Below, piece after piece: positions 3,546 through 30,841 of a stretch of DNA of 32,000 bases (positions within the stretch are counted from its first letter, which is position 1; the number at the start of each line of letters is the position of its first letter). A program made the position numbers and the translations under genes. Under the pieces are notes generated by a model. That model was given only the letters and a program-made list of their open reading frames with translations, did no database searches and was not told the DNA's origin. Origin of the DNA: Candidatus Iainarchaeum sp. (GTDB lineage Archaea > Iainarchaeota > Iainarchaeia > Iainarchaeales > CSSED10-239); contig JAQVTI010000001.1 of the NCBI GenBank assembly GCA_028700115.1, positions 120,001-152,000 on the forward strand, written 5' to 3'.

Positions 3546-3887
3546 TTAAGAAATTAAAGACTTTAAAGTAAAAGATTGCTTTTCTATAAAAAGTAATCCT
3601 AAATCATTATTTATATAAAAAAGAGAACTTAAAAAATCATTTAAAAATAATTTATTAACTCTTATAATTATAATATTATTTTTAAAATCTAAAACAGAAA
3701 TATTTGCCGAAGAAGTTTTAAATAAACCATGTGTTTTTTGAAAATTTTTAATAAATATATATGCTAATTTTTTATTATCATAAGAAGATAAATCATTAAA
3801 ACAACTAATTTTTAAATATCTTTTTTTATGTCTTAAAGTAGGTCTAATAACATTAATTTTTTTAAATTTAATCATATTTTTCCACAA
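3546..3887 (-). CDS. rnp2: RNase P protein component Pop5/Rpp14-like
   Basis: RPTLRHKKRYLKI matches the conserved archaeal Pop5 N-terminal motif (PPTLRxKxRYI). Size about 110 aa. Lies between the Rpp30-like gene and psmA, as in the archaeal superoperon. Confidence 0.72.
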   Translation of the reverse strand: MWKNMIKFKKINVIRPTLRHKKRYLKISCFNDLSSYDNKKLAYIFIKNFQKTHGLFKTSSANISVLDFKNNIIIIRVNKLFLNDFLSSLFYINNDLGLLFIEKQSFTLKSLIS

Positions 3888-4488
3888 ATTTATTATAATC
3901 TAAAATATTATTTAAGATATCTTGGTCTAAATTAAATTCTTTTAAAAAATTAAAAAGAACTTGTTTTGAACAAAGAGAATTTAGATCTTTTGCAAAAGAA
4001 CAAAAATACATATTAATTAATTTTTGTTTAAGAAGTAATATAATAAATTGAGCTTGTTTTATATTTTTTTGAAAATTCTTAGATCTAAAAGAATTATAAT
4101 TAAAAACAACTTTAATATTATTTATTTTACACAAATTAGAACATTGCTCATCAAAAATTAGAGAATCAGATAAAGGATTATATAAATATTTAATATTTTT
4201 ATTAATTAAAAATTTTGTAAGTTTATTACTTTTAGAAAAATTTGGATTAAATAAAATTATTTTTTTATCTAAATCTTTTAAAATAGAAATATCCTCTATA
4301 AGATAAATATATTCTAAAGAAATTTTTTTAAAAGAAGAAAAATCAGGATTTAAAATAATATCTTTTTTTGAAACAATAGGAACTATTACAAAAATTTTAT
4401 TAAAACCTAATTTTAAAAATATATTTTCTAGTTCTTTTGGATTTGAAGAATCTATTAAATCTTTATAAACTATATCAAAAAATTTCAT
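3868..4488 (-). CDS. rnp3: Probable RNase P protein component Rpp30/Rnp3 (divergent)
   Basis: 206 aa and starts MKFFDI. Weak similarity to the Rpp30 pattern (..NIKVVFNYNSF.. and ..FCSFAKD...L.S.Q..FNFL). The call rests mainly on the conserved position immediately upstream of pop5-psmA. Confidence 0.55.
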   Translation of the reverse strand: MKFFDIVYKDLIDSSNPKELENIFLKLGFNKIFVIVPIVSKKDIILNPDFSSFKKISLEYIYLIEDISILKDLDKKIILFNPNFSKSNKLTKFLINKNIKYLYNPLSDSLIFDEQCSNLCKINNIKVVFNYNSFRSKNFQKNIKQAQFIILLLKQKLINMYFCSFAKDLNSLCSKQVLFNFLKEFNLDQDILNNILDYNKFVEKYD

Positions 4489-4602
4489 AAAAATACCTTT
4501 ATTTGAAATAAATTTTTATATTTTCTAAAAAAAATAAAAAATATAATAAATATATTTATTATAAAGAATTTATAAACATATACATTATTTAAAAATAAAA
4601 AA

Positions 4603-6309
4603 CTACATTTTAGAAGGGATATTTATACCTAAAAGATACAATGCATTTTCTAAAACAATATAAAATGCTTTTGTAAATAAAAGCCTATTTGTAGAAATTG
4701 ATTTATTATTACATAGAACATGACAAGAATTATAAAATTTATTAAAAATATGAGATAATTCAATTACATAATTTGCAATAATATTTGGTTTAAAGTCTTT
4801 AGATGCATATATAACTTTTTCTTTAAATTCATTTAATTTATTAATTAATAATAACTCTTCTTTTTCAAAATCATCTTTTAAAAATAAAAAATCAGTATTA
4901 AAATTATTAAAATTAGATTTATCTAAAATACTTTTAGCTCTCACACCACTATATTGAACATAAGCAGAAGAATCACCATTAAGATCTGTAGATTTATTTA
5001 TATCAAAAACAATTGTTTTAAAAATAGAATTTTTTAATAATTCAAATTTTATAGTCCCAAAAGAAATATCTTTTATTACTTGACTATCTTTATCTAAACC
5101 ATTTTGATCTAAAACAAAATTTACTTTTTCAAATAAAGCATCTCTAAAATCTTCATATAAAAATAAAGACCCACTTCTAGATTTCATTTTTCCTTCAGGA
5201 GTATTTACAAGACCATGAGATATATGTTTATTATCTAAATTAGGATAAATTATTTTAAATAATTTAAATAATTGCTCAAAATAAAATTCTTGTTCAGAAG
5301 CAACAATATACAAAAAATTATTACAATCTTTAAATTTCTCTTTTTTAAGATTAATTAAACCAATATCTTTAGCACCGTATAAAAGTGCATGATTACTTTT
5401 AATAATAATAAAATTACCAAGATGCTTGTCATTTAAATCTGCAACAATTGCACCTTGATCTTCTTTAAAAATATAGTTATATTTATTAAAAAGGCCTTCT
5501 TTAATTTCATTAAATTTTTTCTCAGATTGACTTTCAAAAAAGTTAAAACATAAATTAATATCTAATTCTTTTGCAACTTCCATATACCCATTAAAACTAG
5601 AATCTATGAAAAGCTTTAATCTATTTTGTAAATTAATATTTTTAATTAATTGAATTTGATAACTTTCAACTTGAGCTTTATATAAATCTTTATTTTCTAA
5701 AATTTTTTCACCAGCAAGAATGTATATATTACCAAACCATTTACTTTTATCTTTTTCAGGAATTAATTTTTTATTTTCAGCTAAAAAATTATCATAATAC
5801 CAAAGCCATTTTGCAATATGTGTCCCAACATCCCCCATATAAGAAACTGGTCTTGGATCAAAACCTGTAAATTTAAGTAATCTACAAATTGATTCTCCAA
5901 CAACTCCATTTCTAATGTGACCTATATGAAGCATCTTTAAAGGATTTGGTTGAAAAGTGTCAATTACAAAAGATTTATTTTTACCAAAATCAGATTTACC
6001 AAAATCTTTTTTTTTATTTAAAATCTCGGAAATTACATTTTTAACTAAAATTGAAGAATTAATAGTTGCATTTAAATAACCATTTAGTGATTTAAAACTA
6101 AAAATATCAGAAAAAATATTTTCAGATAAATTATTAGAAATTACTACTGGAGATTTTTTTAAAGATTTAGATAAAAAAAAACAAGGAAAAGAAAAATTTC
6201 CCAAATCTATTTTTGGAGGTATTTCTATAAGATCATATATTTCTTGAAAATTAAAATCAGAACCTAATTGTTCTAAAATAAGATCTGCAAAACACTTTTT
6301 ATAATCCAT
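4603..6309 (-). CDS. argS: Arginyl-tRNA synthetase
   Basis: Class I HIGH motif (NPLKMLHIGHIRNGVVGE) and an MKSRSG (KMSKS-type) loop. C-terminal DALR-like anticodon-binding region ending in the ArgRS-typical terminal Met. Confidence 0.93.
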   Translation of the reverse strand: MDYKKCFADLILEQLGSDFNFQEIYDLIEIPPKIDLGNFSFPCFFLSKSLKKSPVVISNNLSENIFSDIFSFKSLNGYLNATINSSILVKNVISEILNKKKDFGKSDFGKNKSFVIDTFQPNPLKMLHIGHIRNGVVGESICRLLKFTGFDPRPVSYMGDVGTHIAKWLWYYDNFLAENKKLIPEKDKSKWFGNIYILAGEKILENKDLYKAQVESYQIQLIKNINLQNRLKLFIDSSFNGYMEVAKELDINLCFNFFESQSEKKFNEIKEGLFNKYNYIFKEDQGAIVADLNDKHLGNFIIIKSNHALLYGAKDIGLINLKKEKFKDCNNFLYIVASEQEFYFEQLFKLFKIIYPNLDNKHISHGLVNTPEGKMKSRSGSLFLYEDFRDALFEKVNFVLDQNGLDKDSQVIKDISFGTIKFELLKNSIFKTIVFDINKSTDLNGDSSAYVQYSGVRAKSILDKSNFNNFNTDFLFLKDDFEKEELLLINKLNEFKEKVIYASKDFKPNIIANYVIELSHIFNKFYNSCHVLCNNKSISTNRLLFTKAFYIVLENALYLLGINIPSKM

Positions 6310-9071: not shown

Positions 9072-9935
9072 ATGGAAGAAAAATACAAACAAAAAATAAT
9101 AAAAGAAATAACAACAAATAAAACAATTTGTTTATTAGCACCTTCTTTTCCAGTAGATTTCAAATATCCAGATATAGTATATAAACTGAGACAAATTGGA
9201 TTTGATAAAATATTTGAATTAACATATGCGGCAAAAATAATTAACCAACATTATCATACAATAATAAAAAATGAAAACAAAAAACAATTTATAGCAGCAA
9301 ATTGCCCATGTACAATAACATATATAGAAAATCAATTTCCTGAATTTAAAAAAAACATAATAAACATTGCATCACCAATGGTAGTAATGGCAAGATTTTC
9401 AAAAAAAAAATATCCAAAAAAAAAATGTGTTTTTATAGGACCTTGCCTTGCTAAACAACAAGAAGCAAAAAAAAATAAAGAAGTAGATTTTGCAATAACA
9501 TTTAAAAACCTATATGAAATATTTAAATATTTTGAAAAAGAAAAAAAATTTAGAAAAATTAAAAAATCAAAAAAAAATTTGCAATTTGATTCATTATATA
9601 ATGATTATACAAAAATATATCCATTATCAGGAGCAGTTGCAAAAACAATGCATTATAAAAAAATACTTAAAAAAAATCAAATAATTGTTGCAGATGGGGT
9701 TATAAAAATTAAAGAAGCACTTGAAAAAATGAAAATTAATAAAAATATAAAATTCTTAGATGCACTTTTTTGTAAAGGAGGATGCATTGGAGGACCAGGA
9801 ATTATTTCTAAAAATAATTTAAATACAAAAATTAAAAAAATAAAAGAATATAGAAAAAATGCAAAAAAAGAAAAAATAGGAAAACATAAAGGATTATTTA
9901 AATATTCTAAAAATTTAAATGTAAAAAGAAAATAA
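9072..9935 (+). CDS. [FeFe]-hydrogenase H-domain-like protein (minimal, no accessory cluster domains)
   Basis: Three H-cluster signature blocks in canonical order: AANCPCT (Cys78/Cys80, nt 9303-9311), GPCLAKQQE (Cys125, Lys128, Glu131) and FCKGGCIGGPG (Cys234/Cys238). Also LLAPSFPV...LRQIGFDKIFELTYAA at the N-terminus. ATG is 1 nt after the taw1 stop. Confidence 0.7.
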   Translation: MEEKYKQKIIKEITTNKTICLLAPSFPVDFKYPDIVYKLRQIGFDKIFELTYAAKIINQHYHTIIKNENKKQFIAANCPCTITYIENQFPEFKKNIINIASPMVVMARFSKKKYPKKKCVFIGPCLAKQQEAKKNKEVDFAITFKNLYEIFKYFEKEKKFRKIKKSKKNLQFDSLYNDYTKIYPLSGAVAKTMHYKKILKKNQIIVADGVIKIKEALEKMKINKNIKFLDALFCKGGCIGGPGIISKNNLNTKIKKIKEYRKNAKKEKIGKHKGLFKYSKNLNVKRK

Positions 9936-9959: not shown

Positions 9960-11108
9960 TTAATCAACTAAACCATCACCAGTTACATTATATACAGCTT
10001 CACCATCTGGAAGAGAAGGAGAATCAACTAATTTTGCAATTCTTTTAGAACCAGTTCCTTTTCTTAAATAAACACGTGTTTTAGAAGCATGTTTTACAAC
10101 ATTCCCACCAATTGCATCTGTTGGGTCTCCAAACAATATATCTGGTCGTGACATAACTTGATTTGTAACAAAAACAACAACATTATAAAGTTCTGCAATC
10201 TTTTGTAAAAGTCTCATATGCTTATTGATTTTTTGTTGCCTATCTGATAATTGACCTCTACCAGTAAACTCAGATCTAAATTGACTAGTTAAAGAATCAA
10301 CAATTACAAGTTTAATATTTTTATCTTTAATTAAATCAACACCCTTTTCTGCAAGAAGCATTTGATGATCACTATTATATGCTCTTGCAACAAATATATT
10401 TTTCATAACCTTTTCAGGATCAAGTCCTCTATATTGAGCAATTTGAGACACTCTTTCAGGTCTAAAAGAATTTTCTGTATCAATATATAAAACAGCTCCA
10501 TCTAAACCACCTTGATCTTTAGGAAGTTGAGCAGTAACACATAATTGAAAACACCATTGACTTTTTCCAGAAGCAAACTTTCCATAAACTTCTGTAATTG
10601 ATTGACTTTCAATTCCACCACCTAATAACTCATCAAGACTTGAAGAACCAGTAGTTATTCTTGAAATTAATTTTCTTCTATCTAAAATTTTTTCAGCACT
10701 TTCAAAACCCATCTCAAGTGCATCTCTTGCAGCTTTAATTGCTTTTATAGCAGTACCTTCACCTAAAGATGCAACAGCAACAAGCTCCATAGGTGATGCA
10801 ACTGCAATAGATTCATAAGTTTCATAACCTGCGGCTTTTAATTTTTCTGCAGAAGTTGGACCAATACCAGGAAGATCAGTTATTTCTTTTGGTTTTATTT
10901 TTTCTTTTATAGGATCATCTATAATTTCATCATCTACATCTACTGGAGAATCTAAATTATCATAATCTTCTACACCTTCTTGATAACTATCATCTAAATT
11001 TTTATCTAAATTTATATTTTTTTTAGACATATTAAACACCTTCTTTTTATTTTTTATAAACTTTTTAAATTGCGTTTTATTTCTTGTGTTTCTCGCCTCA
11101 CAAATCAT
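9960..11108 (-). CDS. radA: DNA repair and recombination protein RadA
   Basis: HhH segment LPGIGPTSAEKLKAAGY, Walker A GKFASGKSQ, Walker B LVIVDS, and the rest of the RadA/Rad51 core. The probable true start is the ATG at 11028-11030 (MSKKNINL...), preceded by GAAGGTG at a 6-nt spacing. The ORF-track N-terminal 26 aa are probably not coding. Confidence 0.95.
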   Translation of the reverse strand: MICEARNTRNKTQFKKFIKNKKKVFNMSKKNINLDKNLDDSYQEGVEDYDNLDSPVDVDDEIIDDPIKEKIKPKEITDLPGIGPTSAEKLKAAGYETYESIAVASPMELVAVASLGEGTAIKAIKAARDALEMGFESAEKILDRRKLISRITTGSSSLDELLGGGIESQSITEVYGKFASGKSQWCFQLCVTAQLPKDQGGLDGAVLYIDTENSFRPERVSQIAQYRGLDPEKVMKNIFVARAYNSDHQMLLAEKGVDLIKDKNIKLVIVDSLTSQFRSEFTGRGQLSDRQQKINKHMRLLQKIAELYNVVVFVTNQVMSRPDILFGDPTDAIGGNVVKHASKTRVYLRKGTGSKRIAKLVDSPSLPDGEAVYNVTGDGLVD

Positions 11109-11428: not shown

Positions 11429-13558
11429 ATGCTTGACGATAATAATATTAAATGGTTTAAAGATATAAAAGATAGTGAAATTACAGAAATAGGATATAAA
11501 GCACATAGACTTTCTGAATTACATAAATCACATTTCCCAATACCAAGAGGGTTTGTAATAAACTCAAAATATTATTTTAGTTTTTTTCAACAAAATGATC
11601 TTAAAGAAAAAATCTTAGAAATTTTAAAAACAATAAATATAGATAATAAAGAGGAAATTTTAAAAAAATCAAAACAAATTAAAGATTTAATATATAAAAC
11701 TAAATTTAAAGAAAAATTTATTAATGAAATTGCAAAAATGTATAATAAAATTGGAGAATCACAAATAGGATGGCTAAATAGTAAAGTCGATGAATATGTT
11801 GCAATTAGAGTATCTATAGTTTCAGAAAAGCACCCCCCTAAAGAACTAGATTTTATTGAAAAATATAGTGGTTTTCTAAATATTAAAGGAATTAACCAAA
11901 TTATGGAATGTATTAAAGAAATATGGGCATCTTCTTTTGATCCAGAATTAATTATTGAAAAAAATAAAAAAAATATTTCAGATAATGATTTTGCTATCGC
12001 AATAATTATTCAAAAAATGATAAATGCACCAATTTCAGGAATTATGAAAACAACAAATGATATTGGAGAAAAAAATACAATTATTGAAGCAATATATGGT
12101 TTTGGAGGAAGTGGTATAATTTGCCAAATAACTCCAGATAATTATGAAGTAAATAAAAAAAATATAGAAATTATTAGAAAAACACAATCAAAACAAGAAT
12201 GGATGTTAAAAAGAATAGTTGGGAAAACAACAAAAGTTATAATTGATGAAAATAAAAAAAATAAACCTAAATTAGAAAATCACGATATTAAAGAGCTTAC
12301 ATCTATTGGAAAAAAATTAGAACTTTTTTTTGGAAATCCATTATATGTAGATTGGGTAATTGATAAAGCAGATATATATATTCTTAGTGCTGATCCAATA
12401 GATCCTTCTAAAAAAAAAATTATTAAAAAAAACACAAAAAAAATAGAACATGAAGGATTCCAAGATAAAATGGACTCTTTTAAAAAAGATGTAATTATCC
12501 AAGGAATTCCTGTATCCCCAGGAATAGCAAACGGAGTTGTAAAAATTATAAAAAATAAATTAGATTTAGAAGAAATTGATTCAGAAACAATTTTAGTTTC
12601 AAAAATGACAAGCCTAGAAATGACTCCATATGTTAAAAAAGCAAAAGCTGTAATTACAGATGCAGGAAGTACTATTTGCCATGCAGCATTAATTTCAAAA
12701 AAATATGATATTCCATGTATAGTTCATACAGAATATGCAACAAGTAAATTAAAAGATGGACAAAATATACAAGTAAATGGAAATAATGGAAAAGTATATA
12801 ATCTTACAGGAGTAAAAATTATAAAAATAAAAAAAGAAGAAGAAAAAGAAATAAAAATGATTGAAAAAGAAAGCGAGATTCCAAAAACATTTACACAAAT
12901 AATTGTAAAAATTGATGAAATTGAAAAATTAAGAGAAATAAATAAAGAAGACATTAATGGAATATATATATGTACACAAAATCTTTTTACAAAAGAAGAA
13001 TATATAGAAATAATTAAAGATAAAGAAATATTAATTAAAAAAATTAGATCAAAAATTGATTTAATTAAAAAAATAACAGATAATAAAAAAATATATTATG
13101 AAATAAATCTCCATCAAAAAGACTTAGTTTATGAAAATATTTCTAATTATGAATTAGAAGCAATTTTTGAAGAAAATAATGAAAATATAAAAATTATTTT
13201 AGACAATATAAAATCTAAAGAAGAAATTATCCCAATAGAACAGAATACAATAAATAAAATTGGAATAAAAATAGATTCATTAAATACAAATATAATTTAT
13301 TCAATATTAGAAAATATAGAAACAATTATAATTAATACAGATAATTTTGATAAATCTAAAAATGTTGAAATTACAAATATTTGTAAAGAAAATAAAATTA
13401 AAAAAATAATTAATATTAATAAAAATAATAAAAAAAATATAAAAGAATATATTGAATCAAAAATAAATGCAATAATTATAGACTATAATGAAATTAATCT
13501 AAAAGAAATAGTCTATAAAAAAGAACAAGAGATGTTAAAAGATTTATTATCAATTTAA
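11429..13558 (+). CDS. PEP synthase / pyruvate,water dikinase-like protein with divergent C-terminal region
   Basis: N-terminal PPDK_N/ATP-grasp pattern (IGYKAHRLSEL...PIPRGFVI, WASSFDPE, ISGIMKT, EAIYGFGG). Swivelling phospho-His domain (GIPVSPGIANGVV...VITDAGSTICHAALISKKYDIPCIV; His codon 12680-12682). The last about 240 aa are K/I/E/N-rich and lack recognisable PEP-utilizer TIM-barrel motifs. Confidence 0.75.
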   Translation: MLDDNNIKWFKDIKDSEITEIGYKAHRLSELHKSHFPIPRGFVINSKYYFSFFQQNDLKEKILEILKTINIDNKEEILKKSKQIKDLIYKTKFKEKFINEIAKMYNKIGESQIGWLNSKVDEYVAIRVSIVSEKHPPKELDFIEKYSGFLNIKGINQIMECIKEIWASSFDPELIIEKNKKNISDNDFAIAIIIQKMINAPISGIMKTTNDIGEKNTIIEAIYGFGGSGIICQITPDNYEVNKKNIEIIRKTQSKQEWMLKRIVGKTTKVIIDENKKNKPKLENHDIKELTSIGKKLELFFGNPLYVDWVIDKADIYILSADPIDPSKKKIIKKNTKKIEHEGFQDKMDSFKKDVIIQGIPVSPGIANGVVKIIKNKLDLEEIDSETILVSKMTSLEMTPYVKKAKAVITDAGSTICHAALISKKYDIPCIVHTEYATSKLKDGQNIQVNGNNGKVYNLTGVKIIKIKKEEEKEIKMIEKESEIPKTFTQIIVKIDEIEKLREINKEDINGIYICTQNLFTKEEYIEIIKDKEILIKKIRSKIDLIKKITDNKKIYYEINLHQKDLVYENISNYELEAIFEENNENIKIILDNIKSKEEIIPIEQNTINKIGIKIDSLNTNIIYSILENIETIIINTDNFDKSKNVEITNICKENKIKKIININKNNKKNIKEYIESKINAIIIDYNEINLKEIVYKKEQEMLKDLLSI

Positions 13559-18935: not shown

Positions 18936-19502
18936 ATGAATCAAAAAAGTGAAATAATATTTTATGGAAGAGGTGGACTTGGAGCAAAAACAGCAGCACA
19001 AATTCTTGCAGAAGCAGCAAATATAGAAGAAAAAAATATCCAAGCTTTTCCAGAATATGGTCCAGAAAGAAGAGGAGCACCTGTTAGATCTTTTGTTAGA
19101 ATATCAGATAAACATATAAGAGTGCATGAACCAATTTTAAATCCAGACTACATAGTTGTAATTGATTCAAACTTATTTGATGTTATTGAAAATTTAAAAG
19201 AATTTAATGGAACTTATATAATTAATACAAATAAACCTAAAGATTATTTTAAAAAAATTCTTAAAAATAAAAAATTTATTTTAATAGATGGAACTAAGAT
19301 TGCTTTAGAAAATCTAAAAATAAATAATCCAAATATAGTTTTGATTGGAGCTTTAATTAAACAAAGTAAAATTATTAAATTAAGTTCTGTTGAAAAAATA
19401 ATTGAAGAAGAATTTACAAAAAAAGGAAAAGAATATTTTATTAAGCCTAATTTAAAATGTTTAAATGAAGGTTATAATTATAATTTTAAAAAGAAAAAAT
19501 AA
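18936..19502 (+). CDS. porC: Pyruvate:ferredoxin oxidoreductase gamma subunit
   Basis: GRGGLGAKTAAQILAEAA...FPEYGPERRGAPV is the POR/KOR gamma signature. First gene of a gamma-delta-alpha-beta operon. Confidence 0.9.
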   Translation: MNQKSEIIFYGRGGLGAKTAAQILAEAANIEEKNIQAFPEYGPERRGAPVRSFVRISDKHIRVHEPILNPDYIVVIDSNLFDVIENLKEFNGTYIINTNKPKDYFKKILKNKKFILIDGTKIALENLKINNPNIVLIGALIKQSKIIKLSSVEKIIEEEFTKKGKEYFIKPNLKCLNEGYNYNFKKKK

Positions 19503-19524
19503 ATAAATTTAGGATAAAATAAAT

Positions 19525-19839
19525 ATGGAAAATAAAAAAAAATCTAAAGAACTACCAATTGGAAGTATACTTCCAGGAGGAACTTCAACTAAAAACAAAA
19601 CAGGTTCTTGGAAAGATAAAGTTCCTGTTTGGGATGAAAAAAAATGTATTCATTGTATGATATGTTATAATAAATGCCCAGAAAACTGTATTCTTGCACA
19701 AGTTAAAGCAGGAAAAATTAAAAGAACAAAAACAGATTTAGAATACTGCAAAGGTTGTGGAATTTGTGCAAAGGTTTGTCCAGTTGGAGCAATAACTATG
19801 AAAGATGCAAGTGAAGTTGAAAAAGAAAATAAAAAATGA
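19525..19839 (+). CDS. porD: Pyruvate:ferredoxin oxidoreductase delta subunit (2x[4Fe-4S] ferredoxin-like)
   Basis: Two CxxCxxCxxxCP motifs (CIHCMICYNKCP and CKGCGICAKVCP). About 100 aa. Located between gamma and alpha. Confidence 0.92.
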   Translation: MENKKKSKELPIGSILPGGTSTKNKTGSWKDKVPVWDEKKCIHCMICYNKCPENCILAQVKAGKIKRTKTDLEYCKGCGICAKVCPVGAITMKDASEVEKENKK

Positions 19840-19852
19840 ATTTGTGAAAAAT
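19839..19852 (+). promoter_or_regulatory. Conserved translation-initiation region AATTTGTGAAAAAT upstream of porA
   Basis: A 14-nt string identical to the one at 21020-21033 upstream of porB. It contains GTGA (complementary to the archaeal anti-SD ...UCACCUCC) 7-10 nt before the ATG at 19854. Confidence 0.4.
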
Positions 19853-19853
19853 T

Positions 19854-21014
19854 ATGAAAAATAAAAAAATGGCATTAACAGGTGGAGAAGCAATCTCATA
19901 TGCTTTAAAACAAATTAATCCAGATGTTGTGGCGATGTATCCAATAACTCCACAAACTCCTATTATTGAAAGATATTCAAAATATGTTGCAGATGGAGAA
20001 GTAGATACTGAACTAATTAGAGTTGAATCAGAACACTCTGCACTTTCAGCCACAATCGGAGCTGCTGCTTCAGGGTCTCGTGCAGTTACAGCAACAGCTT
20101 CTCAAGGTTTACTTTATATGTTTGAAGTTTTATCTGTTGCTTCAGGACTAAGACTTCCAATTGTTATGCCTGTTGTAAATAGAGCAATATCTTCTCCAAT
20201 AAACATACACTGCGATCATTCAGATTCAATGTCTGCAATTGATCAAGGTTGGATGCAAGTATATTGTCAAAATGCACAAGAAAGTTATGAAATGACTTTA
20301 TTTGCAACTAAGCTTGCAGAAAAAGTAAACTTACCTATTATGGTTTGTCAAGATGGATTTATAACTTCCCATAATCTAGAAAACATAGAAGTTTTTAATG
20401 ATAATAAAGTTAAAAAATTTATTGAGGACTACAAACCAGCATATAATTTATTAGATGTAGATAAACCTATATCAATTGGACCTTTAGCCTTAACAGATTA
20501 TTATTTTGAAATAAGAGCACAATTATTTGAAGCTTTTTCAAAAATTAAAAAAGAATTTAAAGAAATTTCAAATGAGTTTAAAGAAACTTTTGACATGAAA
20601 ATTAATTTTTTAGAAAAATATAAATCAAATGATGCAGAAATTATTTTTATATGCTTAAGCTCAACTGCTGAAAGTATAAAAGATGTAATTGATACTTATA
20701 GAGATAATGGTTATAAGGTAGGACTTGTAAGACCAGTTTTATTTAGACCATTTTTTTATGAAGAATATGCAAAAGAATTAGAAAATGCAAAAACAGTAGT
20801 TGTTTTAGATAGATCTGAAGGTCCAGGAAGCCATGCACCTTTGTTTAAAGACATAGTTATTTCTTTAACAAACATAGAAAAAAGACCAGAAGTTTTTTCT
20901 TTTGTTTATGGACTTGGTGGAAGAGAGATTTATCAAAAAGATATATGTAAATTATTAGATACTTTAATCTCTGGTAAGCTTCCAAAAAGTAAATATATTG
21001 GACTTAGAGAATAA
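19854..21014 (+). CDS. porA: Pyruvate:ferredoxin oxidoreductase alpha subunit
   Basis: ALTGGEAISYALKQINPDVVAMYPITPQTPIIE, ESEHSALSATIGAAASGSRAVTATASQGLLYM and GLGGREI are typical PorA/2-oxoacid:Fd oxidoreductase alpha sequences. Confidence 0.92.
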   Translation: MKNKKMALTGGEAISYALKQINPDVVAMYPITPQTPIIERYSKYVADGEVDTELIRVESEHSALSATIGAAASGSRAVTATASQGLLYMFEVLSVASGLRLPIVMPVVNRAISSPINIHCDHSDSMSAIDQGWMQVYCQNAQESYEMTLFATKLAEKVNLPIMVCQDGFITSHNLENIEVFNDNKVKKFIEDYKPAYNLLDVDKPISIGPLALTDYYFEIRAQLFEAFSKIKKEFKEISNEFKETFDMKINFLEKYKSNDAEIIFICLSSTAESIKDVIDTYRDNGYKVGLVRPVLFRPFFYEEYAKELENAKTVVVLDRSEGPGSHAPLFKDIVISLTNIEKRPEVFSFVYGLGGREIYQKDICKLLDTLISGKLPKSKYIGLRE

Positions 21015-23469
21015 TTTTAAATTTGTGAAAAATATGAATAATTCAGAACTTGCAATAAAGATTAATGAAAATAAAAAATTAGTTCCAGGACATAGAACAT
21101 GTGCAGGATGCCCTATTGCTGTGATATTAAGAACAGCACTTGCTTCAACTGATAAAAAAATAGTTGTAGCTTCAGCTACTTCTTGTGCAGAAGTAACTAC
21201 TACAATATATCCTTATACATCTTGGAATGTTCCTTGGATGCATTCTGTTTTTGCAAATGCAGCTGCAACTATTTCAGGAATTGAAAGTTCTTATAAAGCT
21301 TTAAAGAAAAAAGGCAAAATAAAAAAAGATATTAGATTTTTAGCTTTTGGTGGAGATGGTGGATGTTACATTCCAAAAACAAAAATATTAACTACAGAAG
21401 GTTTTAAAAATGTAGAAAAAATAACTACAAAAGATTTAATTTGGTCAATAAATCCAAAAAATAAAACTTTAGAAAAATCAAAAATAAAAAAAATGCATAA
21501 ATATAATTATAATGAAAAAATAATTTCTGTAAATCACAATTTTGTACATTTTGATGTATCTTTACAACACAACATTCCAATTTATAATAAATTAAATAAC
21601 AAAATAGAAGCTATTAAAGCACATGAATTATTAAATTATGGTAGAAGTGATAAAATAAATATAATAACAGGTGATTTAAACTGGAAAGGTAAAAATAAAA
21701 AATATTTTGAATTACCAAAAATTAAATACAACAAAAATTCAAATAATAAAAAGGACATACCTAAAATAAATATGAAAATTTGGTTAGAATTTTTTGGATA
21801 TTGGATATCTGAAGGACACCTTTCAAAACATAATAGTAAAAGAAATATATACAACACTTTTATATCTCAAACAAAAAAAGCAACTATTAAAAAAATAGAT
21901 AAATGCTTAAAACAAACTAAAATAAATTATTGGTATAATAAAGATAGATTTTGTATAAGTAATCAAAAATTATGGGTATATTTAGAACAATTTGGAAAAG
22001 CAAAAGACAAATATATTCCTCAAGAATTTAAAGAATTATCAAAAGACTATTTACAAATATTATTAAATTCATTAATGGAAGGAGACGGCACAATAATTAA
22101 AAGACTTAAAAGCACAGCTTATTCTTATAGTACAATTTCAAAAAAATTAAAAGACGATGTAATTGAAATTGCACTTAAATTAGGATATAGAGTGCATTTA
22201 GATGAAAGAACTAGAAAAAACAGAAAAGAATACAGTATATCTTTTTCAAATTACAAACCAACAAGATTAGCAAACCTAAGAAAAAAACACATCACAAATT
22301 ATAATTATAAAGGAAAAATATATTGTCCAGAATTAGAAAAAAACCACATCATGGTTATTGAAAAAGATGGGCGAATAAGTTTAAATATGAATAGTTTCGA
22401 CATTGGACTTCAAAGTCTATCAGGAGCATTAGAAAGAGGACATGATTTTACATATATATGTTATACAAACGAAGGATATATGAATTGTTTATCTACAGAT
22501 TCACTAATTATGACTGAATCAGGATTAAAACAAATTACAGAAATTAAAAAAGGAGAAAAAGTTTGGGCTTTTGATCAAAAAACATATCAACCTGTTTTAA
22601 AAAAATGCACAGGTGTATTTGATAATGGTAGAAAAAAAGTATATGAAATTGAAACTATACATCAAAATATAAAAGCAACATCTAATCATCCGTTCTTAGT
22701 ATTAAAAAGAAATAAAAATAAAGAAAATGAATTTGTTTGGAAAACAGTTACAGAACTTAAAAAAGATGACGAAATTGTAACTCTTAAAAAGAAATTTTAT
22801 AAAAACTTAGATATAAATAAAAATCTAAAAAATGATTATAAAATACAAAATAATCATTATTTTATAATAAGAAAAATAAAAAATATAATTCCTAGAAAAA
22901 TAGAACAAACATTAGATTTAAGAGTTGAAGGAGAACACAATTTTATTGCAAATGGAATTGTTGTTCATAACACAGGAAATCAGAGATCTTCAGCAACACC
23001 TTATGGAGCATCAACAACTACAACTCCTTCTGGAAAAGTTTCTTTTGGTAAAGAAAAATTCCAAAAAGATCTTGCACAAATTATAATTGCACACAACATA
23101 CCTTATGTGGCAACTGCAAATCCAGAATTCCAAATTGATATGTATGAAAAAATGAAAAAAGCTTTTGAAACAAAAGGACCTTCATTTATTTTAATTTTTG
23201 CAGCATGCCCTACAAACATGAAAGCAGATCCATCAGAGACATTTACAATTAGTAAAATGGCTACTGAGACAAATTACTTCCCACTTTATGAATATGAGAA
23301 TAGAAAATATAAAATTAATTATAAACCTTTTAAAAAAGTTCCAATTGAAGAATTTTTAAAACTACAAACAAAATTTAGAGAAGTTTTAAAAGATAAAAAA
23401 GAAATTAAAATCATACAAGAACACGTAGATGAAAAATGGAATAGTATTCTAAAAAAGGAAGAAAAATAA
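20998..23469 (+). CDS. porB: Pyruvate:ferredoxin oxidoreductase beta subunit (ThDP-binding) precursor carrying two inteins
   Basis: Exteins read [13 protein letters not shown]...LAFGGDGG | [31 protein letters not shown] | [19 protein letters not shown].... This is a normal PorB of about 306 aa counted from the ATG at 21034. The ORF is 823 aa because of two in-frame insertions with intein hallmarks. Confidence 0.92.
   Translation: [823 protein letters not shown]
21020..21033 (+). promoter_or_regulatory. Conserved translation-initiation region AATTTGTGAAAAAT upstream of porB
   Basis: 14/14 identical to 19839-19852 and immediately precedes the ATG at 21034. Supports 21034 as the real porB start rather than the TTG at 20998. 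Confidence 0.4.
21364..22392 (+). mobile_element. Intein 1 in PorB (343 aa, with LAGLIDADG homing-endonuclease domain)
   Basis: Begins with Cys ([14 protein letters not shown], block A) directly after GGDGG. Block B-like [10 protein letters not shown]. Two LAGLIDADG motifs ([10 protein letters not shown] and [11 protein letters not shown]). Block F-like [19 protein letters not shown]. Ends ...ISLNMN with a terminal Asn followed by a +1 Ser (22393). The penultimate residue is Met rather than the usual His. Confidence 0.85.
22486..22971 (+). mobile_element. Intein 2 in PorB (162-aa mini-intein, no endonuclease domain)
   Basis: Starts [13 protein letters not shown] (block A). TSNHPFLV matches the block B TxxH motif. 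[20 protein letters not shown] is a canonical block F/G ending in HN, followed by a +1 Thr (22972). Removing it restores YMN-TGNQRS. Confidence 0.9.
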
Positions 23470-26606: not shown

Positions 26607-28379
26607 TTATTCTTCCATTTCATCATTTTCTTCAGAAAAATCATCATCTATATTTTCAGGTTTACTAGATAAATGTTTTTCATTTTCATCATCCATTTTT
26701 AATTTTTCTAAAACCATTTTATCTAAATTTTTTTGTAAAATTTTAGGATCTCCCCCAACTGTATGAACTATAGCTTCTACTACATATGGAGAATATCTAG
26801 AAAATACTTTTCTTTTTTCTTTTTTCTCAGCATCTCTTTTTTTATCTATTAAAAACTTACCAAGTCTTCTTGCAACATCTTGTAATGCAAGCTTTAAATC
26901 AGTTACAATTTCTTCTTCATCTGCAATTGCAGATTTACCTGCAGAAGTATAAGGTATATGAACAGAGATTAAATTTACAAAAATAGAAATTGGTGCAGAA
27001 TCTATATTTGATATTCCATATCTTTTCCAATCAATTGAAGAAACTGTTTTAGTAATAACACATCCTCCGGCATCAAAAAGTAAAGGTGCTTTATTTGAAT
27101 ATCTAATTATTTCAGAAACTCTTACTTCTCTTATAGTTTCTCCATTTTCACTTGCTTCTTCTGCTTCTTCTTTTTTCTTTTTAGAAACTTTTGCAGAATT
27201 TAAACTAACAAGTCTTCCAGCTTGCCCACCATATGCCAACCCAACTTCAACTTGAAAAGCATATCCACCTTTATAAACAGAAGGTTTTCTAGTATTTACA
27301 AAACAAAATTCTGGATCAATTACAGATTTTAAAGACTTTTCAATAAAAGGTTCTCCAATAGGCACTAAATTTTCTGTATTTGGTGCAATAAATTTTGTTT
27401 GTTTTATAGCTTTAACAATTTCTTCTGCTTCATCCCAAGTTAATTTTTTTGGATCTTTATTAAGATCAAAATGAACTAATTTTGCAACATTATCAACAGC
27501 AGTTTGACCAAATCTATCATATGTTATTAAAAGATATGAAGATACTTTTCTTGCAGGGCTATATCTTGCAAGAGATAACATTTCATCAACTGTAACTCCT
27601 CTTGGATGTGGTTTTACTTGTTTTGGAATTTTTGGAAGTTTTTTTACACTTCTAGGATATAAAGTTATTTCTCCAGAAGGATCTTCAAATTTAATAGTTG
27701 CATGAGGATTAGAAATTGCTGTTCGTCTTAAATATTCATCTACTGAATTTTGTCCTTTTTTATATTGTATTTCTTTAAATTTAGACTTTATTGCAAGACC
27801 TCTAAATTTTTTATCTAAATAAATTTTTTCAGTAATTTTTGGGGAATTTGTTTTTGAATCTATAGATATTTCTAAAGAAACAGTTTTTCCAGTTGTAGTC
27901 CCAGAAATAACTTTAGTTGGTTTACCAGTTGTAATTTGAGAAAATAAAATAATTCCAGAAACTCCAATTCCTTGTTGACCTCTTGTTTGAACTAGTCTAT
28001 GAAATTTAGTTCCAGCTAAAAGTTTTCCTAAAGCACTTCCAATTTTATTTTCTGGAATCCCAGGACCATTATCAATAACAGAAATTTCAAAATATTCTTC
28101 ACTGATTTCAGAAAGTTTAACTTCTATTTCAGGTAAAATTCCAGCTTCTTCACAAGCATCTAAAGAATTAGTTACAATTTCATGAATAATTGTTGTAAGT
28201 GTTCTTTGTTTTCCATAAAGACCTAACATTTGTCTATTTTTTTTAAAAAAATCAGCTACAGAATTTTCTTTAAATTCAGAAAATAAAACATTTGCATCTA
28301 TTCCATCTGGATTTTTATTATCTTGAGAATTATCAATATCAATTTCTTTTTTATTTTTTATATTTTTATTATCTGGCAT
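26607..28379 (-). CDS. top6B: DNA topoisomerase VI subunit B (GHKL ATPase)
   Basis: Bergerat-fold motifs HEIVTNSLDA, DNGPGIP and GQQGIGVSG, followed by the transducer region. Acidic C-terminal tail. Confidence 0.93.
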   Translation of the reverse strand: MPDNKNIKNKKEIDIDNSQDNKNPDGIDANVLFSEFKENSVADFFKKNRQMLGLYGKQRTLTTIIHEIVTNSLDACEEAGILPEIEVKLSEISEEYFEISVIDNGPGIPENKIGSALGKLLAGTKFHRLVQTRGQQGIGVSGIILFSQITTGKPTKVISGTTTGKTVSLEISIDSKTNSPKITEKIYLDKKFRGLAIKSKFKEIQYKKGQNSVDEYLRRTAISNPHATIKFEDPSGEITLYPRSVKKLPKIPKQVKPHPRGVTVDEMLSLARYSPARKVSSYLLITYDRFGQTAVDNVAKLVHFDLNKDPKKLTWDEAEEIVKAIKQTKFIAPNTENLVPIGEPFIEKSLKSVIDPEFCFVNTRKPSVYKGGYAFQVEVGLAYGGQAGRLVSLNSAKVSKKKKEEAEEASENGETIREVRVSEIIRYSNKAPLLFDAGGCVITKTVSSIDWKRYGISNIDSAPISIFVNLISVHIPYTSAGKSAIADEEEIVTDLKLALQDVARRLGKFLIDKKRDAEKKEKRKVFSRYSPYVVEAIVHTVGGDPKILQKNLDKMVLEKLKMDDENEKHLSSKPENIDDDFSEENDEMEE

Positions 28380-28696: not shown

Positions 28697-30841
28697 ATGT
28701 GTTCGATTGCAGGTAGCTTTAATTTAACTCAAAGCATCAAAAATTGTTATGAAATGAATGTTTTAATGCAAAAAAGAGGTCCTAACCACACATCTTTTGC
28801 ACACATCAAAGATAATAAAGTATATATTTATGAATATACAGATAGATTTGAACAAAACAATACAATAAGCCATAATTTACTTGCAATTGTAGGAAACATA
28901 TCTCAACCTATAAAATATAAAAACACATTAATTACATCTAATTGTGAGATATATAATTGGAAAGAAATTTGTAAAAAAGAAAAAATAAATGCAAGAAATG
29001 ACTCAGAGATGTTAATTAAACTTTTTGAGAAAGAAAAAGTAAATAAGAAAACTTTAGAAAAACTAGATGGAGCATATGCATTTTGTTTCTGGAAAGAAAA
29101 CAAAATTTATCTTGCAAGAGATATTTTAGGAGTAAAACCTTTATGGTTTTCATATGAGAACAAAAGTTTTTGTTTTGCATCAGAAAAAAAAGCCTTAGAA
29201 AAAATTGGACGAGAAAAAATAGAATTTTTAGATCCAAGAAAGATTTTAATTTATGATATTAATAAAAATCTAATTAACTATAAAAAAAGAGAATTTATAA
29301 AAATTAAAGAAAATAAAAATGGTTTAGAAAAAAATAAAAAAATAATTCAAGAAAAATTAGAACAAGCAATTATTAAAAGAATTCCAGAAAAAAAACTAGC
29401 ACTTCTTTTTAGTGGAGGAATAGATTCTACAATAATTGCAATGATTCTTAAAAAACACAAAATAGATTTTACAGCATACTTTGCACATCTTAAAGGATAT
29501 AATGAAAATAAAGATTTAGAATATGTTAGAGAGATTGCAAAAAAATATAAAATTAAATTAAAAATTAAAAGTTTAGATTATAAAGACTTAGAAAAAAATA
29601 TTAAACAAGTTGTAAAAACTATTGAATCAACTAACCCTATTAAAATAGGAGTTGGCTTACCTATTTATCTTGCAAGTAAACTTGCTTCAAAAGATAAAAA
29701 TAAAGTTATTTTTTCAGGACTTGGTTCTGATGAGATTTTTGCAGGATATAATAGATTTAAAGAATCTAAACATATTCAAAAAGACACACTTAATCTACTT
29801 TATCAAATACATGAAAATGATTTAAATAGAGACGACTCTCTTACAATGGAAAACAGTATTGAGTTAAGACTTCCTTTTTTAGATTTACCTTTAATTAAAG
29901 AAGTAATTGGAATTGAAGATAAACAAAAAATTAACTCTGAAGAAAATAAAATTATCTTAAGAGAGATTTCAAAAGAATATAGTCTAGATGAAAAATATTT
30001 TAAAAGAAAAAAAGTTGCTGCACAATATGGTTCTGGGTTTGATAAAGGAATAATTAAACTTTCAAAAGAAAATAAATTTAAATCAAAATCAGAATATCTA
30101 AAAACTTTTTTAGAAAAGCAGAATCTTAATTTAGGATGTTTATATTCTTCTGGAAAAGACTCTAATCTTTCTTTAAATATTCTAAAAAAACAAAATTATA
30201 AAATAAAATGTTTAATTTCTATTATTCCAGAAAACAAAGACTCATACATGTATCAAACTCCTGATTTAAAAATTTTAAAAGCACAATCAGAATGTATAGA
30301 AATACCTTTAGTTTTAGGAAAAACAAAAGGTGAAAAAGAAAAAGAATTAATTGATCTTAAAAAAGTAATTAAAAAAGCAAAAGATAAATACAATCTGCAA
30401 GGAATTGTCTCAGGTGCATTATTTAGTAACTACCAAAGAGAAAGAATTCAAAACATATGTAATGATTTAGGTTTAAGATTGTTTTCACCTCTATGGAATA
30501 TAAACCAAGAAAAAGAAGTTTTGAAATTAATAAAAGAAAAATTTGATTTTAGAATTGTTAAAATTGCTGGATATGGACTAAATAAAGATTGGTTTTTAAG
30601 AAAAATAGATTTAAAAGCTTTAGAAGAACTTAAAAAACTAAATAAGAAATATGGTTTCAATGTAGCAGGAGAAGGTGGAGAATTTGAAACTATTGTTTTA
30701 GACTCACCTGATTTTAAAAAAAAAATAAAAGTTATAGACTACAAGATAAATTTAGAAAATGAATTTACTGGTGAAATTGAAATTAAAAAAATAAAAATAG
30801 AAGAAAAAAGAAAAACTAATTCTAACAAGTACAACCAATAG
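28697..30841 (+). CDS. Fusion protein: glutamine-dependent asparagine synthetase-like enzyme (GATase II + PP-loop synthetase) + diphthine-ammonia ligase-like (Dph6/MJ0570-type PP-loop) domain
   Basis: N-terminus MCSIAG (Cys2 nucleophile, 28700-28702), NCEIYN, NDSE, LDGAYAF, LARDILGVKPLW, FASEKKAL. First PP-loop SGGIDS (29411-29428), GLGSDEIFAGY, RLPFLD. From about 30125 a second module: LYSSGKDS (30149-30163), SYMYQTP, GIVSGALFSNYQRERI, SPLW and AGEGGEFETIVLDSP (30671-30691), typical of Dph6/ATP_bind_4. One uninterrupted frame. Confidence 0.85.
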   Translation: MCSIAGSFNLTQSIKNCYEMNVLMQKRGPNHTSFAHIKDNKVYIYEYTDRFEQNNTISHNLLAIVGNISQPIKYKNTLITSNCEIYNWKEICKKEKINARNDSEMLIKLFEKEKVNKKTLEKLDGAYAFCFWKENKIYLARDILGVKPLWFSYENKSFCFASEKKALEKIGREKIEFLDPRKILIYDINKNLINYKKREFIKIKENKNGLEKNKKIIQEKLEQAIIKRIPEKKLALLFSGGIDSTIIAMILKKHKIDFTAYFAHLKGYNENKDLEYVREIAKKYKIKLKIKSLDYKDLEKNIKQVVKTIESTNPIKIGVGLPIYLASKLASKDKNKVIFSGLGSDEIFAGYNRFKESKHIQKDTLNLLYQIHENDLNRDDSLTMENSIELRLPFLDLPLIKEVIGIEDKQKINSEENKIILREISKEYSLDEKYFKRKKVAAQYGSGFDKGIIKLSKENKFKSKSEYLKTFLEKQNLNLGCLYSSGKDSNLSLNILKKQNYKIKCLISIIPENKDSYMYQTPDLKILKAQSECIEIPLVLGKTKGEKEKELIDLKKVIKKAKDKYNLQGIVSGALFSNYQRERIQNICNDLGLRLFSPLWNINQEKEVLKLIKEKFDFRIVKIAGYGLNKDWFLRKIDLKALEELKKLNKKYGFNVAGEGGEFETIVLDSPDFKKKIKVIDYKINLENEFTGEIEIKKIKIEEKRKTNSNKYNQ

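Follow-up and report, generated by a model that had tools for sequence, protein, structure and literature searches.

Two putative inteins interrupt the thiamine diphosphate loop of a pyruvate:ferredoxin oxidoreductase subunit gene in a DPANN-type archaeon

Class 1 inteins that contain a nested LAGLIDADG endonuclease for homing, such as PI-SceI (Sce VMA), TliVMA, PhoVMA, PI-PkoII and PI-PfuI, have a Cys at their first position (Cys1), a His in block B, a terminal Asn, a nucleophile at the first residue of the downstream extein (+1), and two LAGLIDADG helices that each end in an acidic residue. In standard inteins, catalysis is also assisted by a penultimate His (position G:6) and by an Asp in block F (position F:4), both of which are usual, not obligatory. 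Class 3 inteins lack the N-terminal nucleophile and have the triplet Trp(B:12)-Cys(F:4)-Thr(G:5), while mini-inteins of the Ssp DnaB type (1mi8, 6frg) have Cys1, a TxxH motif, an Asp at F:4 and a terminal His-Asn, and no endonuclease. Genes that contain two inteins, one of them lacking the homing endonuclease, include mcm in T. kodakarensis and dnaB in M. smegmatis (PMC10643990, PMC6195587). Here, we analyze two inserts in porB, the gene for the β-subunit of pyruvate:ferredoxin oxidoreductase (POR), in a stretch of 32,000 nucleotides from Candidatus Iainarchaeum sp. (contig JAQVTI010000001.1, positions 120,001 to 152,000), which is referred to as the window and to which all coordinates refer. 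We consider it very likely that the porB gene of this DPANN-type archaeon is interrupted by two independent inteins of the class 1 type, that both must splice for PorB to be produced, that the first of them (intein 1) is mobile, and that the second (intein 2) is a derivative that has lost its endonuclease by deletion.

The porB precursor gene is located at 21034..23469 on the + strand, and its best family is NCBIfam PorB NF008819. The list of open reading frames gave the gene a TTG start (20998..23469, +; 823 codons), which overlaps the end of porA. However, the ATG at 21034 (MNNSELAIK) corresponds to the start position in the homologs (MN(N/I)xEL), and because the homologs begin there, it is probably the correct start and the TTG the wrong one, which gives a gene of 811 codons. 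Neither insert shifts the reading frame or contains a stop codon, and their coordinates are exactly those of an earlier note on this DNA, in which two inteins were proposed at these junctions. Insert 1 (21364..22392, +; 343 aa) extends from CYIPKTK to GRISLNMN and is followed by a Ser, and insert 2 (22486..22971, +; 162 aa) extends from CLSTDS to NGIVVHN and is followed by a Thr. They separate an N-extein of 110 aa that ends with FGGDGG (21034..21363, +), an inter-intein extein of 31 aa with the sequence SFDIG...TNEGYMN (22393..22485, +), and a C-extein of 165 aa plus the stop codon (22972..23469, +).

Excision of both inserts yields a PorB protein of 306 aa, which matches NF008819 in one stretch (positions 6-296 of 300 in the profile) with 364 bits, compared to an equivalog cut-off of 405 bits for this family and 317 bits for the next family, the VorB-type NF008818, while the precursor matches in three separate stretches. 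The spliced product aligns without gaps over both junctions with the PFOR β-subunit 9bt4_C, to which the identity is high, with the oxalate oxidoreductase β-subunit 5c4i_C, and with the D. africanus PFOR 1b0p. It contains the GDG...N motif for binding of thiamine diphosphate (ThDP) and Mg, is encoded in a porGDAB context, and has an Asn at the position in the pyruvate pocket that corresponds to Asn996 in the D. africanus PFOR. A search with the spliced sequence identified at least 120 intein-free PorBs of 300-313 aa, with up to 74% identity along the full length of the query. When the precursor was aligned by MAFFT with seven of these intein-free orthologs (approximately 58-74% identity), the only long gaps were those at precursor residues 111-453 and 484-645, which are the two inserts. 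Both inserts are thus placed in frame at a conserved site and are absent from the orthologs, and their excision restores the host sequence exactly.

The in-frame position is the one feature, with nothing beyond it, that speaks for both segments being lineage-specific domain insertions that are kept in the mature PorB. This explanation is removed by the gap-free alignment of orthologs and structures over the junctions. Furthermore, both segments have a HINT fold and its signatures, namely Cys1, an Asn at the end and a +1 nucleophile, they are absent from orthologs at 74% identity, and 343 plus 162 extra residues inside the ThDP/Mg loop would be expected to disrupt the site. We therefore give it virtually no credence, and regard it as confirmed, at the level of sequence, that the two inserts are real inteins with exactly these junctions.

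The two inteins are located in the loop that binds ThDP, Mg and substrate. The Mg2+-binding elements in StOFOR are the GDG motif (89b-91b) and Asn118b, and Leu123b corresponds to Asn996 in the D. africanus PFOR, a residue of the substrate pocket that moves on pyruvate binding (PMC5020499). In the gap-free alignment with 1b0p, the sequence GDGG/S of the window is placed on GDGW/A, and YMN/TG is placed on YSN/TG, where the slash indicates the splice junction. The first insertion site, site a, follows GDGG and is located one residue past GDG. The Mg-binding Asn is N136 in TNEGY (D108 + 28), which matches Asn118b in StOFOR, and the second insertion site, site b, follows N141, the equivalent of Asn996, five residues after the Mg-binding Asn. 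The earlier note was thus right to place both inteins in the active site, while site a, at unchanged coordinates, lies one residue further from GDG than was stated there, and the assignment of site b to the closing metal-binding Asn does not hold. The two sites are 31 residues apart, and the extein of 93 bp between them contains both N136 and N141. The metal site formed by GDG...N and the substrate pocket would therefore be complete only in the spliced protein.

The Cys residues of the spliced PorB are located at positions 23, 26 and 51 in the N-extein and at position 220 (AACPT) in the C-extein. We take these four residues to be the ligands for the proximal [4Fe-4S] cluster in PFOR, in which case binding of the cluster would also need the ligated protein, because the ligands are split between the two exteins. 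The suggestion in the earlier note that POR activity would depend on two splicing events is supported by this analysis. At site a, the residue that follows GDGG in the intein-free PorBs (P0121-P0240) is a Thr in 83 proteins and a Ser in 23 proteins, while a Leu, Phe, Ala or Gly is found in 13 proteins. No nucleophile would be available at +1 in these 13 proteins, which may represent alleles that cannot tolerate an intein.

Intein 1, here called PorB-a, consists of a HINT splicing domain and a LAGLIDADG endonuclease. The splicing domain was recognized from the family profile and from matches to the predicted fold. The alignment used for this purpose (A1) contains intein 1 and 15 homologous inserts that the initial database search had retrieved, in total 16 PorB-a inteins with identities down to 32%, and the profile of this family matches PI-PkoII and VMA inteins. 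The AF2 model of intein 1 that was built on A1 has a predicted local distance difference test score (pLDDT) of 90.9 and a predicted template modeling score (pTM) of 0.90. The best Foldseek matches to the model are all intein-endonucleases, with TliVMA (7qsu, E 5e-15) in the first place, followed by PI-SceI, PI-PkoII and PI-PfuI (7qsu, 1vde, 2cw7 and 1dq3, with E from 5e-15 to 6e-12), and the next tier contains free-standing LAGLIDADG enzymes (I-DmoI and I-SceI). The Pfam domain LAGLIDADG_3 was identified with 40.6 bits in two stretches (cut-off 22.5). The predicted endonuclease has two helices that each end in an acidic residue and an alpha-beta-beta-alpha-beta-beta-alpha pseudo-dimer fold.

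The residues that are expected to be important for splicing are conserved among the 16 PorB-a inteins. The catalytic set is complete, with C1, His69 in block B, N343 at the C-terminal end and a Ser at +1, and C1, H69, C321-P322, N327-H328, N343 and D241 are invariant. Block B (21553..21585, +) contains the motif S66-x-x-H69, in which H69 and the nearby N70 and P72 show no variation in the 16 family members. The first LAGLIDADG motif (21781..21822, +) contains the acidic residue E150, which at least 90% of the family have in common and which terminates helix 137-150 of the model. The second motif (22051..22095, +) contains D241, flanked by the equally invariant G240 and G242, at the end of helix 227-241. 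Block F (22315..22362, +) contains Cys321 at position F:4, where an Asp is usual. Two LAGLIDADG motifs with intact acidic residues had also been read from the sequence in the earlier note. Intein 1 thus has the same two-domain architecture as PI-SceI and the other class 1 inteins with a nested endonuclease, and it shares with them Cys1, the block B His, the terminal Asn, the +1 nucleophile and the two acidic-ended LAGLIDADG helices. However, it is only 10-14% identical in sequence to these inteins, its penultimate residue is a Met (a Gly in most of its clade) rather than a His, it has a Cys rather than an Asp at F:4, and its host is a metabolic enzyme that contains ThDP and Fe-S clusters. Taken together, insert 1 is a full intein, and its LAGLIDADG homing endonuclease may be active, as was proposed in the earlier note. 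In the closest relative with two inteins (P0001/L002), a Lys replaces the Glu at the acidic position in LAGLIDADG motif 1 (ISKGH rather than ISEGH), and the endonuclease at site a in this relative is therefore probably inactive.

Intein 2, here called PorB-b, is a mini-intein of 162 aa without an endonuclease. The HINT blocks A, B, F and G are all present, as is a +1 nucleophile, and intein 2 was identified with 67.5 bits by the Pfam model Intein_splicing (cut-off 35.8) and above the cut-offs by TIGR01445 and TIGR01443. It also matches the Ssp DnaB mini-intein (PDB 1mi8) end to end with E 6e-12. Its C1, TSNH motif, Asp at F:4, VVHN end and Thr at +1 agree with the description in the earlier note of a canonical mini-intein, and with the inteins of the Ssp DnaB type, from which it differs in its host, its insertion site and its origin as a natural and recent deletion derivative of a PorB-b intein of 369-372 aa. 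This origin was traced by aligning intein 2 with the full-length site-b inteins of 369-372 aa in P0001, P0007 and P0010, which places a linker of 17 residues (22786..22836, +) where a LAGLIDADG domain of approximately 210 aa appears to have been deleted. Identities were computed on the splicing halves, since the deleted domain makes the global identity misleading. Compared with the full-length inteins, the N-terminal 100 residues show 82-88% identity and the C-terminal 45 residues show 78-84% identity, and these values exceed the extein identity, while the other mini-inteins at site b are only approximately 60% identical to intein 2. Because of this difference, intein 2 is best described as the product of a recent and independent loss of the endonuclease from the common site-b PorB intein. 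A database protein of 329 aa (P0241) is 100% identical to the residues MN, intein 2 and the C-extein (22480-23469 in the window). P0241 is a gene call from the internal Met in YMN, which suggests that porB genes with inteins are truncated or mis-called in the public annotation.

Inteins in PorB are not restricted to the window. The best 120 database matches to the precursor were all intein-bearing PorBs from metagenomes, of which approximately 15 have an intein at site a and approximately 105 have an intein at site b. The source names among these matches included Nanoarchaeota, Woesearchaeota, Aenigmarchaeota and Omnitrophica, and some of the proteins had been labeled "PorB/intein/homing endonuclease" by the JGI pipeline. 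The site-b inteins (n=107) all have the pattern C1...HN/T, and 83 are full-length (362-372 aa) while 24 are mini-inteins (153-224 aa). To avoid a bias from the intein sequence, the representatives of clusters at 50% identity were also searched with the C-extein only, and approximately 14 of the best 150 matches carry inteins. The same search brought up a third site, site c, which is located eight residues upstream of site b, with the pattern Y[IV]/C...ISN/CYDNE (P0246, P0248, P0249, P0281 and P0363), and the inserts at this site, approximately 480-540 aa long, score above the cut-offs for both Intein_splicing and LAGLIDADG_3. There are thus at least three intein sites within approximately 32 residues of the ThDP loop in PorB. 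All carriers of PorB inteins that we have seen are uncultured. In the literature searched, we found no paper that describes PorB inteins, and a paper on inteins in Anaeramoeba has no POR/PFO intein.

Double-intein PorBs were also identified on independent contigs, namely P0001/L002 (1023-1025 aa), L059 (1019 aa), P0265 (798 aa) and the partial P0116. Among these, P0265 resembles the window in that site a holds a full intein and site b a mini-intein, with an extein identity of just 45%. These data also bear on the question of whether the double-intein gene in the window is an assembly chimera of an allele with intein a and an allele with intein b. Single-intein alleles of both kinds are indeed present in close relatives, but the same double arrangement is seen on independent contigs from other samples (P0001/L002, L059 and P0265), the inter-intein extein is continuous and in frame, and the database protein P0241 matches intein 2 and the C-extein with 100% identity, all of which makes a chimera exceedingly improbable. 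The two inserts are evidently ordinary inteins, and the same ones are found in hundreds of related uncultured microbes and are common in DPANN and Omnitrophota metagenomes. The word "unusual" in the earlier note was thus too strong, given the intein-bearing matches, the JGI labels and the recurrence of double-intein PorBs. PorB-a and PorB-b are nevertheless new and uncharacterized intein alleles in a class of hosts where inteins are less familiar.

All four states of occupancy are found among orthologs with 72-76% extein identity. Both sites are occupied in P0001, only site a in P0002, only site b in P0007, P0008, P0010 and P0014, and neither site in P0121-P0123. The intein at site a in P0005 is 62.7% identical to that in the window, while the exteins are only 48.5% identical. 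Because the intein identity exceeds the extein identity, this incongruence points to intein transfer between porB alleles. Intein 1 and its endonuclease part are under purifying selection, with dN/dS values of approximately 0.15-0.25 for the intein, 0.17-0.30 for the endonuclease part, and 0.10-0.23 for the exteins, all of which are rough since dS is near saturation. Like mcm in T. kodakarensis, dnaB in M. smegmatis and the Haloferax gene with the inteins MCM-a and MCM-d, porB is an essential gene with two close, non-allelic inteins, one with and one without an endonuclease, and alleles with a single intein are common among the relatives. Unlike these genes, its host protein is PorB and not a replicative helicase. 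In Haloferax, the two active neighboring inteins in MCM hindered each other's homing (PMC10643990), and because of this interference, joint homing of the two PorB inteins is speculative.

Besides this interference and the roughness of the dN/dS values, several other points weigh against the reading of two functional inteins that are both needed for PorB. Intein 1 lacks the penultimate His, with Met342 at G:6, and also the usual Asp at F:4, where it has Cys321. The Pfam model Intein_splicing gives it 24.5 bits, which is below the cut-off of 35.8, and a single-sequence search of the PDB with intein 1 gave no match. Splicing and endonuclease cutting are themselves inferred. Finally, only 32 kb of the genome are visible in the window, and a second, intein-free por operon may be encoded elsewhere.

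The Met-Asn end, the Cys at F:4 and the low Pfam score could also mean that intein 1 is decaying and defective in splicing, and that porB is a pseudogene or encodes an inactive protein. However, the reading frame is intact, all other catalytic positions are invariant over the 16 PorB-a inteins, and the dN/dS ratio is approximately 0.2. The PorB site-a inteins also share the deviations, since 16 of 16 end with Met-Asn or Gly-Asn, never with His-Asn, and have the F:4 Cys in an invariant Cys-Pro. To place these features in a broader context, GTDB was scanned with one genome per species, which gave 192 relatives of intein 1, of which the best 80 were kept and 77 were intact. Among these intact relatives, Cys1 is present in 77 of 77, the end is Gly-Asn in 73 and Met-Asn in three, and the block F Cys is present in 76 of the 77. 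The hosts of this clade (loci L004-L080 in GTDB genomes) include MCM (L039, L049 and L071, from Methanoculleus), an SDR-type sugar-nucleotide enzyme (L020), carbamoyltransferases (such as L005), a radical SAM protein (L023), a GltB-like protein (L027) and NrdD (L041). The MCM hosts are from cultured Methanoculleus species, with the junctions AMEQQ/C...GN/SISVAKAGI, and in the SDR host, the intein directly precedes the catalytic YxxxK motif. The clade, with Cys1, the F:4 Cys and the Gly-Asn end, is thus spread over many unrelated hosts in archaea and bacteria, and we found no description of it as such in the literature.

The penultimate His is absent from approximately 5% of the functional inteins, and only one residue is more common than Cys at F:4 (PMC4031507). 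Like the functional inteins of this type (such as Ssp DnaE and Ceu ClpP; PMC4031507), intein 1 has its terminal Asn preceded by a residue other than His, a trait that is conserved in its family. Unlike in those inteins, the residue is a Met, which among the sequences analyzed here is found only in the PorB-a subclade of the window, while the rest of the clade has a Gly. The deviations thus run through the clade of 77 relatives, which also comprises inteins from the replicative helicase MCM in cultured methanogens. Because they occur throughout a clade whose inteins need to work in essential genes, the Met-Asn end and the F:4 Cys are evidently traits of functional inteins and not signs of decay, for which we see little probability. 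The Met-Asn end is indeed non-canonical, as was pointed out in the earlier note, yet it is a conserved trait in a large and evidently functional clade.

A class 3 intein was also considered as a candidate for intein 1, since it has a Cys at F:4 and a Ser at +1, in similarity to the class 3 inteins (such as MP-Be DnaB and AceL NrdHF), and since the HINT portion of the model can be superposed with the class 3 intein in AceL NrdHF at 1.6 Å over 100 columns. Unlike the class 3 inteins with their WCT triplet, intein 1 retains the Cys1 nucleophile, has an Ile or Val instead of the Trp at B:12, and has an Asn or Ser instead of the Thr at G:5. The class 3 assignment was rejected for these reasons.

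We therefore return to the interpretation of two class 1-type inteins, under which the precursor of 811 aa would excise both inteins autocatalytically to give the PorB of 306 aa. Splicing would start with an N-S acyl shift at Cys1, followed by acyl transfer to Ser+1 in intein 1 or to Thr+1 in intein 2, after which the terminal Asn would cyclize and an O-N shift would form the peptide bond. Intein 1 would be mobile and belong to a widespread clade, and its homing endonuclease has probably retained its activity. Intein 2 should be unable to home by itself. Its persistence would be due to the active site, which is essential and would not survive an imprecise loss of the intein, and co-conversion may in addition allow intein 2 to follow intein 1.

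An additional possibility, which would add to this explanation rather than exclude it, is that splicing is conditional and serves as a post-translational switch for POR, for example if an oxidative disulfide between Cys1 and Cys321 holds the oxygen-sensitive enzyme as a precursor until conditions are reducing. Cys1 and the F:4 Cys are invariant over the clade, position F:4 adjoins both splice junctions in known inteins (PMC2807308), and disulfides that involve active-site Cys residues make splicing redox-sensitive in other inteins (PMC4031507; PMC6195587). The central role of POR in this organism, as judged from the genes for the acetyl-CoA synthetase α-subunit, acetate kinase and the PPDK/PEP synthase homolog in the window, also speaks for a switch. 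However, because the same clade is found in many unrelated hosts (MCM, SDR, carbamoyltransferase and NrdD), the Cys should be a property of the intein and not an adaptation to POR, and the patchy presence in close relatives is more in line with a selfish element than with a regulator. A conditional switch thus seems rather unlikely. Slightly less likely still is a broader scenario, in which the PorB loop is a recurrent intein target and the inteins have been co-opted as a conditional switch, with either a redox trap formed by Cys1 and Cys(F:4) or a hybrid class 1/class 3 route via a block F thioester, and in which intein 2 spreads by co-conversion. If a switch does operate, the mature, oxygen-labile POR would be made only under reducing conditions.

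The porB gene is the last gene in a porG-porD-porA-porB cluster at 18936-23469 on the + strand. The cluster starts with porG for the γ-subunit (18936..19502, +; Pfam POR, 120.6 bits), followed by porD for the δ-subunit, a ferredoxin-like protein with 2x[4Fe-4S] (19525..19839, +; Pfam Fer4 families), and porA for the α-subunit (19854..21014, +; Pfam POR_N with 250 bits, and PFOR_II). Genes for the α-subunit of an ADP-forming acetyl-CoA synthetase, acetate kinase and a PPDK/PEP-synthase homolog are located near the por cluster, and together they form a pyruvate-to-acetate fermentation module. The window has a GC content of approximately 23% and contains archaeal marker genes for the exosome proteins Rrp41 and Rrp4, the proteasome α-subunit, SBDS, the RNase P protein Pop5, RadA, and topoisomerase VI subunits A and B. 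The GC content is 21% in the inserts and 29% in the exteins. This difference was not used as a sign of foreign origin, since in a genome with 23% GC it may just reflect weaker constraint.

RadA, topoisomerase VI subunit B and PPDK/PEP-synthase are classical intein hosts. In the window, the genes for RadA (9960-11108, -), topoisomerase VI subunit B (26607-28379, -) and the PPDK/PEP-synthase homolog (11429-13558, +) are intein-free, while PorB carries two inteins. The final approximately 250 residues of the PPDK/PEP-synthase homolog have no Pfam match. An open reading frame at 9072-9935 (+) encodes a protein of 287 aa that consists solely of the C-terminal (H-cluster) domain of the [FeFe]-hydrogenase large subunit (Pfam Fe_hyd_lg_C, 140 bits). 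This protein lacks the ferredoxin-like N-terminal domain and is, as a hydrogenase-like protein, unusually small for an archaeon. A fusion protein of 714 aa is encoded at 28697-30841 (+), with an asparagine-synthase-like part (GATase_7 and Asn_synthase) and a diphthamide synthase domain (Diphthami_syn_2). The GC content drops to 15.5% over positions 4001-5000, and an open reading frame for 206 aa at 3868-4488 (-) has no Pfam match.

These results add POR, a central enzyme in anaerobic energy metabolism, to the hosts of inteins. The inteins at three or more sites in the ThDP/Mg/substrate loop, in DPANN archaea as well as in Omnitrophota bacteria, represent a clean case of inteins at the most constrained residues of an enzyme that does not act on nucleic acids. 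The clade with Cys1, Cys(F:4) and Gly-Asn is a candidate for studies of mechanism and redox control, and a possible source of splicing tools. The location of a full intein and an intein without an endonuclease only 93 bp apart offers a possible test system for hitch-hiking of a mini-intein on the homing of its neighbor. Since intein-bearing PorBs are split or under-scored by gene callers and family models, metabolic reconstructions of DPANN archaea could miss POR, or list it as a "hypothetical protein".

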